Part shown: piece after piece, positions 11,947 through 17,407 of the stretch
Position numbering within the stretch: the first letter of the stretch is position 1
Layout of the letters: each line of letters opens with the position of its first letter
Assembly (NCBI GenBank): GCA_964441335.1
Contig: CAYTUI010000003.1
Coordinates: forward strand, 1 to 49,086
DNA from: an uncultured Gammaproteobacteria bacterium
GTDB lineage: Bacteria > Patescibacteriota > Patescibacteriia > UBA1558 > 2-01-FULL-52-15
Length of the DNA stretch: 49,086 bases
Reading direction: 5' to 3'
Notes under the pieces: model-generated
Told to the model about the DNA's origin: nothing
Database searches by the model: none
What the model saw: only the letters and a program-made list of their open reading frames with translations
Made by a program: the position numbers and the translations under genes

Positions 11947-12014
11947 AGAATAAATAAGTAATGATATTAGGAGTTTGTAGGTACATAGTTATGTGCTATT
12001 AATTTTTGCATAAT

Positions 12015-12599
12015 ATGCTCGAAGCAATTAAAAACCTAACATGGGAGACCTCAGATATATTGAGTATAGTCGCCATTGTTTTATCAGTAATTTTTTCCGT
12101 TCTTACAATCATCCTAACCAAAAAAGAGAAACCAAACGTAATGCCGTATGGTCAAAATGTCTTCGACGGTAACCACCTTGTCCTAGATTTTAACAATCCT
12201 AGCGACACCAATCTTCATGATCTTATACTCCTAATAAACGGCTTTGACTCAGAGTTTAACGAAATTTCATCTCTACATTTTCAAGATAAGTATTTATTCA
12301 CTATTAGTTCAAAATCTATGTTCAACTATGGATTTAACGTCGGTGACACCTGGGCGACCAAAAACTTCTTCTTCAGAGTACGTCTAAAGGGTAAATATTT
12401 CTCACGTTTTCCAATATTCGCAACAAGAAAATTTGAACAAAAAATTTGGTACTCAGCAATAGTACGAAAATTAGTTGAAGAAAAAATTAGTATCAAAATA
12501 TCGACTACTCACCGAGATGAAATTAATAGGCTCGAAGCAAAACATAAGGTGGCGCTAAAAGAATACGAAAAAAATATTGACGAAAAGTTTAAAAATTAA
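12015..12599 (+). CDS. Hypothetical protein with N-terminal membrane anchor
   Basis: ORF with hydrophobic segment ILSIVAIVLSVIFSVLTIIL. Confidence 0.7.
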   Translation: MLEAIKNLTWETSDILSIVAIVLSVIFSVLTIILTKKEKPNVMPYGQNVFDGNHLVLDFNNPSDTNLHDLILLINGFDSEFNEISSLHFQDKYLFTISSKSMFNYGFNVGDTWATKNFFFRVRLKGKYFSRFPIFATRKFEQKIWYSAIVRKLVEEKISIKISTTHRDEINRLEAKHKVALKEYEKNIDEKFKN

Positions 12600-12668
12600 T
12601 AGCAGATAACATCGCATATCTGGCTCATCAACCTTGCTTTATTTTTCCCTTTAGATTATGCTCTGCCT

Positions 12669-13960: not shown

Positions 13961-14553
13961 ATGATCAAGGCTATCATATTTGATGTCGGAGGAGTATACA
14001 TGAAAGGCAAGACCTCCGATTTTGTTAATCGCTCTTATAAAATACTTAATATCAACAAAAAATTTAAACCAGGCAATAGTTTGGTATTTGATAAAAAATT
14101 GAATAAGGGTTTAATTACCCATGAACAATGTTTTAAAAAATTTTTCAATGTACCTATAACTGAGCAACAGATGAAAAAGATAAAACAAGTATGGATATCA
14201 ACTTGGGCACCGACAAAAGAAATGATTAATTTGATAAAAAAACTTTCCAAAAAATATACTCTGGCAATATTATCTAACTCCGACTCATTAAATTCACGAA
14301 ACTATGCTACCAAAGGTTGGTATTCATATTTTGATCATTTAATTTTATCCCATGAGTTGGGTATCTTAAAACCCAATAAAAAAATTTACCAAATTGCCTT
14401 GAAAAAAATTAACCGCCCAACCAAAGAGTGTATATTTTAGATGATCGCGAAAAAGCGTTATTACCCGCGGCTAAATTAGGTATGAAGACAATCCTCTTCA
14501 AATCTTTAACGCAACTTAAAAAAGAATTTAAATCAAGAAATATCTCATATTGA
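13961..14553 (+). pseudogene. HAD-family phosphatase with 1-nt frameshift near 14438
   Basis: IIFDVGGV, LSNS, KP motifs; after ECIF the motif IV DD plus the C-terminus (DDREKALLPAAKLGMKTILF...SY*) continue in another frame. Confidence 0.8.
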
Positions 14554-14578
14554 CTCAAAACTCAAGGCGTGCTAAATT
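14550..14578 (+). promoter_or_regulatory. Sigma70 promoter for the small-ORF cassettes
   Basis: TTGACT-17 nt-TAAATT with TG extension. Confidence 0.6.
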
Positions 14579-14586
14579 CCTTTATT

Positions 14587-14616
14587 AGTTCTTTAGCAAA
14601 ATATTCTTTGGGGGCG
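14587..14616 (+). repeat. Cassette left repeat, copy 1 (boxA-like motif plus inverted-repeat arm)
   Basis: agttctttagcaaaatattctttgggggcg; 29/30 identical to 15430-15459. Confidence 0.9.
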
Positions 14617-14636
14617 CACACAACAAGGAGGTTTTA

Positions 14637-14858
14637 ATGTCATATCGGAAGTCAATTCTTGGCTACAGTCTCGCTATAGCGTTGGGCTTCGGGATTATGC
14701 TGATTGGCGATCTCAAGTTCAAGAATGACATACCTATGATTGGTCTGGGGATTGGCCTCGCTGTGATCAGTACATTTATGCTCTACATCACCTTGATGAG
14801 GCGAGTCGGCCAGCAGATCCGTGAGCGTCGGGCACGTGAATCTCGTCAGAGATCATGA
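14637..14858 (+). CDS. Small 2-TM membrane protein with Arg-rich tail
   Basis: AAGGAGG SD, two hydrophobic helices. Confidence 0.75.
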   Translation: MSYRKSILGYSLAIALGFGIMLIGDLKFKNDIPMIGLGIGLAVISTFMLYITLMRRVGQQIRERRARESRQRS

Positions 14859-15091
14859 ACCAAGGTCAATCTACGATAGGGGGTATGATGACAAGAGACA
14901 ACTGTGAACACACGGGCGAATTGGGCATTGAACTAACGGAGCTAGTGGAGGGACTGGTGATCATACTGATCGGGGCACTCCTGGCTTTTGCCTTTTTCTA
15001 CCTATCCACTATTCCGCCATATGCTGATGTAGGCCCACATATCAGTACAGGACACCCCGTCTTCTCGCCCTATGGGTGGGCTCTTGGTTAA
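14855..15091 (+). CDS. Small 1-TM membrane protein
   Basis: ATGA overlap with previous stop; one hydrophobic helix; start uncertain. Confidence 0.55.
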   Translation: MNQGQSTIGGMMTRDNCEHTGELGIELTELVEGLVIILIGALLAFAFFYLSTIPPYADVGPHISTGHPVFSPYGWALG

Positions 15092-15137
15092 TCAAGGGCT
15101 CTAATTCCGAGAAACAGCCAAGAACAGGAGGCTCACG

Positions 15138-15332
15138 ATGGACATCGTTCGGTTCAAGAAGACCGTTCTTGTGATCGTGGCAGTGATCAGCATCGGAACG
15201 ATTGTGGTCGGCATGTTCTGCGGGATACCCAGCGTGGCAGGCCTCGGTGGCTTCATTCTACTTCTGGACATGCTGGCAGTAGGCTGTATCGTGCTTGACC
15301 CACCGCAGCGCCGCATCAAGCGACAACTGTAG
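15138..15332 (+). CDS. Small 2-TM membrane protein with basic tail
   Basis: CAGGAGG SD, two hydrophobic helices. Confidence 0.75.
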   Translation: MDIVRFKKTVLVIVAVISIGTIVVGMFCGIPSVAGLGGFILLLDMLAVGCIVLDPPQRRIKRQL

Positions 15333-15356
15333 CGGAGAAGCAACACGCCCAAATTA

Positions 15357-15398
15357 GAGACAAGGGAACGCCCTTGTCTCGCCCCCTAAGAATATTTT
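15357..15398 (+). repeat. Hairpin plus cassette right repeat, copy 1
   Basis: gagacaaggg-aacg-cccttgtctc, then cgccccctaagaatatttt (18/19 reverse complement of 14598-14616). Confidence 0.9.
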
Positions 15399-15429
15399 CA
15401 GTTAAATGTCTATGGATTAAATATTCTTA

Positions 15430-15459
15430 AGTTCTTTAGCAAAGTATTCTTTGGGGGCG
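15430..15459 (+). repeat. Cassette left repeat, copy 2
   Basis: agttctttagcaaagtattctttgggggcg. Confidence 0.9.
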
Positions 15460-15476
15460 TTCAACAGGAGGAGAAG

Positions 15477-15671
15477 ATGAGTAAGAAAACCGTTGTAGGT
15501 ATCTTGATCGGCGGCGTCGGTATGGTGGTTAGTATCGTAGGCTCGATACAGTCAGTCACATGGCTCAGGCTGGCCGGTGCTTCCATCATGTTGTTTGGCC
15601 TCATCCTGGTCGCACCAGCATGGATGCGTGAAGTGCGACGGGCTAAAGAGGAGATTCGCCAAAGACATTAA
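15477..15671 (+). CDS. Small 2-TM membrane protein with basic tail
   Basis: CAGGAGGAG SD, two hydrophobic helices, REVRRAKEEIRQRH tail. Confidence 0.78.
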   Translation: MSKKTVVGILIGGVGMVVSIVGSIQSVTWLRLAGASIMLFGLILVAPAWMREVRRAKEEIRQRH

Positions 15672-15708
15672 ACACCCCAAACTAGTCACAGAATGTGACT
15701 CATTTACC

Positions 15709-15760
15709 GAGAGAAGGCCGCTACAATAAGGCTCCTTCTCTCGCCCCCTAAGAATATTTT
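15709..15760 (+). repeat. Hairpin plus cassette right repeat, copy 2
   Basis: gagagaagg...ccttctctc, then cgccccctaagaatatttt; 22 nt identical to 15377-15398. Confidence 0.9.
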
Positions 15761-15789
15761 TATCCCTTTCATCATACCTCAACGCCTAT

Positions 15790-15897
15790 CTAACCTCTCC
15801 TTCTCTGAAGGAGAGGAAAGGAGAGGATGTGAGATTTACATTAAATCCTCTCCTTTAATTCCTCCCCCTTTTCAAGGGGAGGTTAGGATAAGGATTA
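15790..15897. repeat. Two REP-like purine/pyrimidine-skewed palindromes
   Basis: cctctccttctctgaaggagagg and cctcccccttttcaaggggagg, each with a G-rich tail. Confidence 0.6.
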
Positions 15898-15964
15898 ATT
15901 TTCGCGCCCCTGCTTAATCTGCGGGGTTTTATGATACAATGATAGGGTCAAAACTTAAGCTAAT

Positions 15965-17407
15965 ATGACCAATATCGCTTCCAAAATCTTCTACAATACC
16001 TTCTGGCAGATAGTTTTTCGGGCTGTGGAGATTGTTTTGGGGGTGGTAACTTTAGGCTTGATTACCAGATATTTAGGTCAGGCGCAATATGGTTATTACA
16101 CCACTATTATGGCCTGGCTACAGTTTTTCATCATTCTAATTGATTTGGGATTATATTTAACATTACTGCGGGAAATCTCGGCTAAGACAGCCGACCAAAC
16201 AGCCAAAATCGTCAATAATATCTTCACCCTACGGTTCTTCAGTTCTTTAGTTTTTCTGTTTCTGGGTATCGTCATAGTCCAATTTCTAAATTATCCAGCG
16301 GCCATTAAAATTGGCGTCATCGCCTTATCATTAAGCTATTTCTTTGTTTCTTTAGTCACTGTCCTGACTGCTATTTTTCAAAAACAGCTGGTCATGCCTA
16401 AAATTGCCGCCGCCAGTTTAGTCAATAAATTAGCTTTCTTTATTTTTGTTATTTATTTAATTTCCAGCGGCCACGATTTGCAGACAATTCTTTATGCCGC
16501 TTCTCTAGCTTCGTTTATTTATTTTTTAATGACCTGGATATTTACCAGCAAATATCTTAATTTAAAACTGCAATTTGATTGGACATATTGGAAGCTAATT
16601 CTGATTAAAACTTGGCCCTTAGCTGTTACTACTGCCTTAAATCTGATTTACTTCAAACTGGACACATTATTTTTATCTTGGTATCAGCCGGCCGCCACAG
16701 TCGGTCTATACGGCGCGACTTACAGAGTGCTGGAAATAGCTACTACTTTCCCGCATATGTTCATGGGTTTAGTTTTGCCTTTACTGACGGCCGCCTGGGT
16801 CAGCCATGATCTGGCCAAAGTAAAAACCATCTGGCAACATAGTTTTGACTTCTTTGCCTTTTTAACACTGCCGATGATTTTTGGAACTTTGGTTTTGGCC
16901 ACGCCCTTGATGGTCTTGGTAGCCGGGCCTGATTTCAGTCTGTCGGGTCCGATTCTAAAAATTTTAATACTGGCCACAGGCGCGATATTTTTCGGCACGC
17001 TTTTTACCTATATGGTTTTAGTTCTGGATCAACAGCAAAAAATGATTAAATATTTTGCTTTGGCCGCGGTGTTATCAATCATCGGCTATTGGACATTAAT
17101 TCCTCTGTATTCTTACTGGGCGGCGGCTTGGGTGACGGTAATTATTGAAACGCTAATTATAATTTTTGCCTGGCTGGTAGTCAGACGAAAATTTCAACAC
17201 ACTCCCAACTTAAAAACTTTTGTTAAATTATTAGCGGCCAGTGTTATTATGTCTGTTATACTTTACTATTTGCCTGATTTCCAGGTGCTGTTAAAAATAT
17301 TAGTCGGCCTTATTGTTTATCTGGCTCTGGTTCTGATGCTTAAAGCCTACAAATTAACCGACTTAAAACAATTGATCTTAAACGAAAAAAAATCCCGAGC
17401 TGAATAG
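15965..17407 (+). CDS. Wzx-type polysaccharide flippase
   Basis: Multi-TM; ITRYLGQAQYGYY, DLGL, IYFKLDTLFLS...VGLYGATYR. Confidence 0.9.
   Translation: MTNIASKIFYNTFWQIVFRAVEIVLGVVTLGLITRYLGQAQYGYYTTIMAWLQFFIILIDLGLYLTLLREISAKTADQTAKIVNNIFTLRFFSSLVFLFLGIVIVQFLNYPAAIKIGVIALSLSYFFVSLVTVLTAIFQKQLVMPKIAAASLVNKLAFFIFVIYLISSGHDLQTILYAASLASFIYFLMTWIFTSKYLNLKLQFDWTYWKLILIKTWPLAVTTALNLIYFKLDTLFLSWYQPAATVGLYGATYRVLEIATTFPHMFMGLVLPLLTAAWVSHDLAKVKTIWQHSFDFFAFLTLPMIFGTLVLATPLMVLVAGPDFSLSGPILKILILATGAIFFGTLFTYMVLVLDQQQKMIKYFALAAVLSIIGYWTLIPLYSYWAAAWVTVIIETLIIIFAWLVVRRKFQHTPNLKTFVKLLAASVIMSVILYYLPDFQVLLKILVGLIVYLALVLMLKAYKLTDLKQLILNEKKSRAE

Follow-up and report, generated by a model that had tools for sequence, protein, structure and literature searches.

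Why small, GC-rich orphan open reading frames (ORFs) should stand in two tandem units on a Patescibacteria contig, each enclosed by nearly the same 19-nt inverted repeat, was the question raised by the DNA described here (NCBI GenBank assembly GCA_964441335.1, contig CAYTUI010000003.1, positions 1 to 49,086; hereafter the window, meaning this whole stretch of 49,086 nt). Comparison of the locus, which belongs to a tiny bacterium from groundwater, with its own genome and with relatives firmly established a real, recurrent and insertable mini-gene cassette, in which a conserved frame of promoter, leader and trailer carries unrelated cargo and which is tied, in relatives, to integron-like arrays. 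That the units are mobile cassettes was considered very probable. A proposed role of the repeats in RNA fell slightly short of an even chance, and the statement as a whole, that these are members of a rare family of horizontally mobile mini-gene cassettes of Patescibacteria whose repeats clamp the ends of their mRNA, was judged to be evenly balanced.

Unit 1 occupied 14550-15398 and unit 2 occupied 15395-15760. Each combined a 19-nt inverted repeat and a leader common to both with strong ribosome sites, orphan ORFs rich in GC and a hairpin at the 3' end. A repeat finder returned arms at 14598-14616/15380-15398 and at 14598-14616/15742-15760, 19 nt long and 95% complementary, and a preliminary description of this DNA had placed the repeats correctly; the four arms lay at 14598-14616, 15380-15398, 15441-15459 and 15742-15760. 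The 17-nt core of the repeat had four matches in the window against 0.31 expected, a number reached in 0/100 shuffles. The near-identity of the frames that had been described was borne out by 84% identity over 44 nt on the left (14587-14630 and 15430-15473) and 96% over 27 nt on the right (15372-15398 and 15734-15760), as were the claims that the A-to-G change in the left arm of unit 2 still pairs, as G-U, and that the cargo is GC-richer than host genes (0.45-0.56 inside the units vs 0.27-0.36 in the upstream host genes). The units had also been taken to start at 14587 and 15430; a promoter scan and the family alignment moved the real start to the promoter, about 45-60 nt upstream of the left arm. 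The motif aacac..ccaaa.tag, described as part of the frame, was present in the window units but only loosely retained across the family. The features of the two units, with IR-L and IR-R denoting the left and right arms, are as follows.

14550-14578, plus strand: promoter of unit 1 from a consensus scan, with a -35 box TTGACT (14550-14555), a 17-nt spacer and a TG-extended -10 box TAAATT (14573-14578)
14587-14597, plus strand: conserved leader box AGTTCTTTAGC, a direct repeat, at about the predicted transcript start
14598-14616, plus strand: IR-L1, 19 nt, found as an inverted repeat, by pattern match and in the covariation table
14627-14631 and 14637-14858, plus strand: ribosome site GGAGG and ORF1, 73 aa, with two predicted membrane helices and a basic tail
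14855-15091, plus strand: ORF2, 78 aa, or 48 aa if translated from a possible internal start, with one predicted membrane helix
15127-15131 and 15138-15332, plus strand: ribosome site GGAGG and ORF3, 64 aa, with two predicted membrane helices
15357-15380, plus strand: GC hairpin 1, cargo-specific, with a 10-bp stem and a 4-nt loop, abutting IR-R1, with C15380 common to both
15380-15398, plus strand: IR-R1, 19 nt, with a T run at its end; its last bases double as the -35 region of unit 2
15395-15423, plus strand: promoter-like site of unit 2, with TTTTCA (15395-15400), a 17-nt spacer and TAAATA (15418-15423)
15430-15440 and 15441-15459, plus strand: leader box and IR-L2, the latter with its fourth base changed from A to G
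15467-15471 and 15477-15671, plus strand: ribosome site GGAGG and ORF4, 64 aa, with two predicted membrane helices and a charged tail
15709-15742, plus strand: GC hairpin 2, cargo-specific, abutting IR-R2, from sequence reading and family alignment
15742-15760, plus strand: IR-R2, 19 nt, with a T run after it

The promoter-like site of unit 1 sat 20 nt upstream of IR-L1. That of unit 2 was inferred by its register with unit 1 and lay below the threshold of the consensus scan; its first bases, as read from the sequence, came from the tail of IR-R1. Three of the four window ORFs were preceded by GGAGG at a distance of 5-6 nt; the start of ORF2 overlapped the stop of ORF1 and its possible internal start had a weaker ribosome site. 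By eye, no such GGAGG site preceded nearby host genes of the window (the HAD and flippase starts).

The preliminary description had proposed counting the repeats in the genome and its relatives, and this revealed four loci in the source genome (1.27 Mb, 82 contigs, 42% GC), as well as copies in other families and orders. Eight of the 11 loose pattern matches in the source genome made up four cassettes, the other two being located on contig C11 (246 nt core to core, with a zinc-ribbon ORF) and contig C16 (581 nt, with two membrane ORFs). At least one repeat end was detected in 9/86 genomes of the order and in 16/401 of a class sample, with reversed-pattern controls giving 0-1 matches per genome. 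Seventeen complete cassettes were collected from nine genomes and three public contigs, representing two orders of one Patescibacteria class: seven genomes of the source organism's own order and two of another (G294 and G225) held cassettes with both ends, and the public contigs supplied three complete cassettes and three cut ones. With a pattern that proved too loose, the genome-contig scan yielded 120 stretches, mostly single chance matches, with two paired-end cases among the 80 listed, and the metagenome scan yielded 10 loci. Viral contigs gave 23 loci with one end apiece and none with paired ends, about what an 18-mer with four degenerate positions would yield by chance.

Several observations accompanied this census. 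One of the genomes (L026, the same locus as that of G294) was titled Candidatus Kerfeldbacteria, and another contig was labelled Saccharibacteria by its submitter. In a soil metagenome of a different study, one contig (306 nt) matched the left frame and ORF1 (window 14581-14871) at about 94% identity, and the same run held a fragment with the start of ORF3 behind a different leader. An "empty pad", with IR-L and IR-R 2-60 nt apart, was found in 0/86 genomes of the order. GC-rich islands of the source genome were not generally flanked by inverted repeats (mean score 8.19 vs 8.24 in the control; 178 islands), although the island filter also excluded the known cassettes, so that this test shows only that the design is not general. 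The sole clear outlier was a 23-nt inverted repeat around a 425-nt GC-rich island in the source genome (G000 C56:1903-2294).

Alignment of the 17 cassettes revealed a common anatomy. A TTGAC(A) box stood at a fixed distance of about 60 nt before IR-L in 15/17 cassettes, with a -10-like box after it, and most of the aligned 5' frames had a TTRGTTCT-like box near the expected transcript start. IR-L was followed after 10-35 nt by a GGAGG-type ribosome site, one to three ORFs, a hairpin, IR-R and at least three T residues. All 17 hairpins opened with GAG and closed with CTC around an inner sequence that differed from copy to copy, and IR-R began at or directly after the closing CTC.

Across the family, conserved frames enclosed unrelated cargo. 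In three pairs (G294/L081, G020a/G028a and L201/G028a), the 5' frames were about 90% identical over some 95 nt and the IR-R identical, while the cargo could not be aligned. The orthologous pair G020b/G071 had frames about 90% identical and an identical 60-nt stretch of hairpin and IR-R, with ORF identity of 18/52 aligned residues. Cargo GC was 0.47-0.52 vs AT-rich frames, and the variable stretch extended from just past IR-L up to the hairpin. A short leader motif, TTCGTTC, ran beyond IR-L in some pairs, indicating that the break points are not perfectly sharp. The alignments showed that promoter, leader and trailer are conserved and that the GC-rich cargo between the repeats is replaced by unrelated sequence.

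Empty sites, which the preliminary description had suggested seeking, were found at one exact position within one genus, behind the rlmH stop codon and ahead of the promoter that serves an ArsR-like gene. The unit was present there in two genomes (G020 and G071) and absent from three congeneric ones (G068, G069 and G070), which had 10 nt at this point. The insert began with GACAAT... and finished with the end of IR-R, ...CCCCCTAAGAGTATTT; joined to the CATTATT of the target, it yielded a new TGA stop as well as the TT of the TTGACA box. No target-site duplication was detected at the 17 elements. As the left edge of the insert was the -35 box, the mobile unit comprises promoter, leader, cargo and trailer, with IR-L internal to it. 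This comparison of genomes showed a discrete DNA insertion edged by the -35 box and the end of IR-R. Target and insert both ended in TATT, and unit 2 of the window likewise stood behind the ...AATATT tail of unit 1; the shared ending explains how tandems can build up, and unit 2 was presumably added at the tail of unit 1 in this way. For the window units themselves no empty site was obtainable, the relatives of the locus being too diverged (64-70% identity). An apparent joint from 14614 to 15378, found among contigs of three DNA runs and considered as an excision product, was rejected, since its loose ends showed that it came from the paralogous C16 cassette.

The left neighbor of unit 1 was a gene for a HAD-family hydrolase (13961-14553), broken by a frame change near 14437 into frames 13961-14440 and 14428-14553. 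Its stop codon fell within the -35 box of unit 1, and its last codons may derive from the inserted unit. To the right, a dispersed repeat of about 44 nt at 15843-15888 (ATCCTCTCCTTTAATT with the hairpin CCTCCCC..GGGGAGG) belonged to a hairpin run at 15786-15891 and had 15 more copies on other contigs. A scan of 14300-16000 against Rfam 15 gave no match at gathering score; the hits, all sub-threshold, were to microRNA and similar models and fell in this run of hairpins.

The four window ORFs gave no significant family in Pfam, PHROG, PADLOC or NCBIfam. The best results were a weak match of ORF4 to a holin PHROG (E 0.0021) and one to SCO2097_fam, with 21 bits against a cut-off of 110. A word-limited search for homologues of ORF4 in 5.8 billion proteins returned only ORF4 itself, and a protein atlas search with ORF1 gave leads below 0.9 only. 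The mutual dissimilarity of the cargo ORFs that had been noted in the window was upheld when all 28 sense ORFs that the 17 cassettes hold with a length of 40 aa or more were compared with one another; this detected two homologous pairs, G066/L203 and, weakly, G020b/G071, and no similarity among the window ORFs. In these two pairs, dN/dS was about 0.39 and 0.44, respectively, values that fit real, fast-evolving coding sequence. A membrane helix was predicted in 14/20 ORFs preceded by a ribosome site, most of them two-helix proteins of 55-85 aa with basic tails, and the remaining six were arginine-rich, zinc-ribbon or acidic proteins that used the same frame. GC-rich stretches with several small ORFs and GGAGG, free of the 19-nt repeats, adjoined the other two cassettes of the source genome (G000 C11:300-2400 and C16:4700-6000; L004 and L006).

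A connection to larger systems emerged in the relatives. Ten of the 17 cassettes were enclosed by a further, outer pair of imperfect inverted repeats that were attC-like. Site A, just before the -35 box, read ...CAGATACGC ttgtct GTTAGGCGAAAT and continued into a cassette-specific extension; site B, after IR-R, began with the extension and continued as ACATCGCCCAACACCGCGTATCTG.... Both recur as the repeat sites in long arrays (about 20 kb) of cassettes that share one orientation; the array repeat had a AACACCGCGTATGCG core with GCCCAAC and GTTAGGC boxes, fitting RYYYAAC and GTTRRRY, respectively. Compact sites of about 85 nt, with B followed by A, had the RYYYAAC-like box at their start and GTTAGGC at their end; many array repeats were only about 30-45 nt long, and some were inverted. 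The arrays and recombinase loci are as follows.

G040:C3:52800-77579 (L236 and L237): B sites (at least 20) on a single strand between about 52.8 and 76.1 kb, together with AT-rich ORFs in the same orientation as one another, followed by a 299-aa tyrosine recombinase in divergent orientation
G028:C4:92389-100810 (L235): recombinase, then array up to the contig end
G028:C3:1-19300 (L174 and L226): contig opening with 19 kb of array
G066:C10:1-5288 (L238): a cassette of the present family as the first beside the recombinase
G020:C6:1-1098 (L239): B site at the contig start, then recombinase

Four array recombinases passed the NCBIfam model NF040815, "site-specific tyrosine recombinase/integron integrase", with 230-235 bits (cut-off 220). 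On the integron-integrase model TIGR02249 they scored 203-206 bits, below the cut-off of 265, and they also scored below the XerC and XerD cut-offs. Only about 22 of their residues lay across profile positions 168-228 of the integron-integrase model, which we take to be the place of the extra domain that defines IntI. The passage on the IntI-specific domain in an archaeal-integron preprint agrees with this placement. We termed the arrays integron-like, short of calling them integrons, and their recombinase, which scored best on the "integron integrase/XerA" model, XerA/integron-integrase-like.

The source genome itself gave a different picture. Its own tyrosine recombinases were two, a 286-aa Xer protein (152 bits on NF040815, 65.6 bits on TIGR02249) and a 347-aa integrase, accompanied by two large serine recombinases. 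Two intact IS200-type (Y1) transposases were found at C53:3466-3831 and C20:18030-18377, with fragments on C68 and C1; the end hairpins of these copies were unrelated to the cassette ends, and no TnpB was found in the genome. No array-type recombinase was detected on its 82 contigs, no recombinase or transposase gene stood beside any of its four cassettes, and no GTTRRRY/RYYYAAC pair flanked the window units, in which the 3' end consisted of IR-R and the T run only. Six B-like sites were present, at 12606-12622 in the window, at three places on C11, at C16:4653 and at C61:78. The window site (ATAACATCGCATATCTG) lay directly after an AT-rich ORF (12006-12599), and the C16 site lay 1.4 kb from the C16 cassette. 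To the left of unit 1 and of the cassette on C11, the flanking sequence still resembled the last bases of site A (GAAATAT...TCATATTGAC), which suggests descent from array cassettes; the four copies of the source genome would then be solo insertions that left integron-like arrays.

The preliminary description had offered a gene-capture cassette with exchangeable cargo as one of its readings. At the DNA level this was supported by the recurrence of the cassette, the empty site, the contrast between frames and cargo, and the arrays in relatives; no linked recombinase was found in the source genome, and the left edge proved to be the promoter and not IR-L. A broader proposal, which we hold as tentative and rather improbable, is a two-layer gene-capture system that combines integron-like chromosomal arrays, which have short sites with core sequences of integron type and would be served by a Xer-type recombinase without the integron-specific domain, with an inner "expression vector" module of promoter, leader repeat and trailer repeat. 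Foreign, GC-rich mini-genes would be swapped into this module by recombination at the two inverted repeats, and the module would leave the arrays and settle behind housekeeping genes, as in the window.

Mobility leaves the function of the 19-nt repeats to be explained. The cassette plan begins with a sigma-70-type promoter and a leader containing IR-L, continues with a strong ribosome site and one to three small ORFs, and ends with a cargo-specific GC hairpin, IR-R and a T run. Both arms lie within the predicted transcript, and a 5'-3' paired mRNA fits this anatomy; the arms would therefore work chiefly at the RNA level, where pairing of the two mRNA ends is their most likely role. The 5' leader and the 3' end would be held together by a 19-bp helix that stacks on the cargo hairpin and has U residues after it. 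Such a helix could end transcription and insulate it in both directions, shield both mRNA ends and, like the tac/fbi stem in hok mRNA, might keep the message for a small and potentially harmful membrane protein closed and poorly translated.

The stem was in register across the family, with positions -3 to +14 pairing in nearly all copies. Covariation, the absence of which the preliminary description would have counted against its reading, was found as changes on both sides at four stem positions (TA 9/CG 7/TG 1; GC 15/AT 2; CG 4/TA 10/TG 1/CA 2; AT 7/TA 5/CG 1/GT 2/TT 2). A T/T mismatch at one position was retained in three of the four cassettes of the source genome and in G004. Pairing halted exactly at +14, where the hairpin starts, and the two helices could thus stack. 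The stem appeared in the minimum-energy fold of 17/17 predicted transcripts, with a mean pair probability of 0.82-0.98.

Several points weigh against mobile cassettes with clamped mRNA ends. The pairing of the ends is here a prediction from DNA sequence and folding, and a perfect 19-nt complement is always predicted to pair, so that the fold result adds little. Concerted change of both arms is also expected of DNA inverted repeats that are bound by a protein or homogenized by recombination, and the mismatch tally (about six G-U-type vs four A-C/A-G-type cells) did not clearly favor the sense strand. The ribosome site was paired with the 3' region in only about 5/17 predicted folds, so that a consistent masking like that of type I toxins, whose translational control the preliminary description had suggested as a model, was not observed. 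The helix end beside the T run was AU-rich, unlike a typical intrinsic terminator, and none was called by the scan. Two other GC-rich, minus-strand cassettes of the G028 array (L012 166-560 and 989-1319; G028:C3) had private 17-23-nt inverted repeats that bracketed promoter, ORF and terminator; these lay upstream of or across the promoter and so cannot form an mRNA end clamp there, which shows that cassette-specific inverted repeats in such arrays can be a DNA-level feature. On the side of mobility, no mobilizing enzyme was assigned to the cassettes and the unit edges were drawn from one filled/empty comparison, and since the 17 cassettes are mutually related, counts over them are not independent events.

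The alternative that survived best takes the 19-nt repeats as DNA recombination sites, at which a site-specific recombinase would swap cargo between cassettes, a natural cassette exchange, or invert it against a fixed promoter as an on/off switch. We consider it unlikely. In its favor, IR-L and IR-R delimit the variable stretch, with about 90% identity in the frames outside, the same repeat occurs at four dispersed loci as do the sites of a global invertase, both arms change together, the other G028 array cassettes have inverted repeats of their own that are not within the mRNA, and the source genome encodes two tyrosine and two large serine recombinases. However, cargo was inverted relative to the promoter in 0/17 cassettes, no recombinase gene adjoined the four cassettes of the source genome, and no joint with a strand change was found among the contigs (not reads) of the three DNA runs. 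Frequent recombination between the arms should also erase the T/T mismatch, which persists in three of those four cassettes and in G004, and the TTCGTTC similarity past IR-L means that the exchange points are not sharp.

Promoter-bearing cassettes of chromosomal integrons are often toxin-antitoxin modules, and the units could be a type I toxin-antitoxin system of the hok kind, in which the mRNA of a membrane toxin is locked by a 5'-3' stem, freed by 3' trimming and opposed by an antisense RNA antidote. We consider this distinctly unlikely. The prevalence of small predicted membrane proteins (14/20 cargo ORFs, mostly two-helix with basic tails), the weak holin match of ORF4, the predicted 5'-3' stem and, in cassettes of the source genome, a C-rich motif ahead of the hairpin that could pair alternatively with IR-L would suit such a system, yet 6/20 cargo ORFs were non-membrane proteins in the same frame and a unit held anywhere from one to three ORFs. 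Neither an antisense promoter nor an antidote RNA was identified, no Rfam family was matched at gathering score, and the masking of the ribosome site was inconsistent.

Non-autonomous transposons, of the miniature inverted-repeat transposable element (MITE) or mobile insertion cassette (MIC) type, with a transposase acting in trans, are a very improbable alternative. In their favor, the units combine 19-nt inverted repeats with passengers unconnected to transposition, occur in several copies per genome and are patchily distributed, and the MIC concept has been published (PMC3913671). The left edge of the unit, however, falls on the -35 box, some 60 nt beyond IR-L; target-site duplication was seen at none of the 17 elements; and a transposase sharing these ends was not detected, with different end hairpins on both intact IS200-type copies and no TnpB found. 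Chance likeness, or duplication in tandem at this one place, which the adjacency and common frames of the window units might suggest, is excluded by the shuffles (0/100), the copies on two other contigs and in eight other genomes and the unrelated cargo. Nor did the data show the picture that would have refuted the preliminary description, namely repeats confined to this place, paralogous ORFs and a stem free of covariation.

In Patescibacteria, with their tiny genomes, the acquisition and expression of new genes are poorly understood. The cassettes represent a modular solution, in which one frame of promoter, leader and trailer is reused for unrelated, compositionally foreign small proteins, most of them membrane proteins without known relatives. 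If confirmed, they would extend cassette-based gene capture to the Patescibacteria radiation, point to a recombinase/site pair other than the classical IntI/attC and supply organisms for which genetic tools are lacking with a compact expression cassette of natural origin. If the mRNA ends do pair, this would amount to a general end-clamping design that reaches beyond type I toxins. In the literature on Patescibacteria and the candidate phyla radiation (CPR), no account of this cassette family or of integron-like arrays was found. Word searches of two integron papers (PMC9024848 and PMC10661359) and of the archaeal-integron preprint likewise returned no mention of Patescibacteria or CPR, although supplements may list such genomes. 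The two-layer system has a fair chance of being a new type of gene-capture platform.

Phage "morons" are independent units of promoter, gene and terminator with a base composition unlike that of their neighbors, and in this the cassettes are alike. Unlike morons, the cassettes were not found in phage (0/23 viral-contig loci paired), and they use one frame across unrelated cargo. They also differ from an inverton in that inverted orientation was seen in 0/17 cassettes (in contigs, not reads). Palindrome elements derived from IS200/IS605 are distinct as well, as the cassettes have a hairpin at the 3' end only and the hairpins of the resident TnpA copies (C53 and C20) are unrelated; the one site at which duplication-free insertion 3' of TATT was observed would be compatible with that mechanism. 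With MICs and MITEs the cassettes have in common the inverted repeats around passenger genes and the several copies per genome, whereas the lack of target duplication, the lack of a parent insertion sequence in the pattern scan of the genome and the extension of the unit beyond its left repeat set them apart.

The mRNA of hok/Sok, with its complementary 5' and 3' extremes (tac/fbi), encodes a small hydrophobic protein (PMC9841398). To that extent, the predicted 19-bp 5'-3' stem of 17/17 cassettes is similar. Unlike hok/Sok, no antisense RNA was found, masking was inconsistent, the cargo may be non-membrane or consist of multiple ORFs, and there was no sequence relation.

Xer-dependent dif modules of Acinetobacter plasmids, according to two reports (PMC6449649 and PMC13141974), hold accessory genes between short, often inverted Xer-type sites and are shuffled between replicons. 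The arrays of the relatives are similar in their Xer-like recombinase and in the inverted site copies that flank some cassettes. They differ in that they are chromosomal, stand beside the recombinase gene and have mostly direct repeats, and the window units are without these sites.

Integron cassettes offer both parallels and contrasts. The window units are without attC-type outer repeats, and their genome is without such a recombinase. Integron cassettes are usually promoterless and depend on a platform promoter, whereas the present units have their own promoter inside (TTGAC and a -10 box in 15/17). The array recombinases differ from an integron integrase in their scores (203-206 vs 265 bits) and in the unmatched profile positions 168-228. 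As in integrons, however, small and mostly orphan genes are carried as discrete, exchangeable units, and in the relatives they are organized in co-oriented arrays, with imperfect-palindrome repeats that bear GTTAGGC and GCCCAAC and an adjoining divergent tyrosine recombinase.

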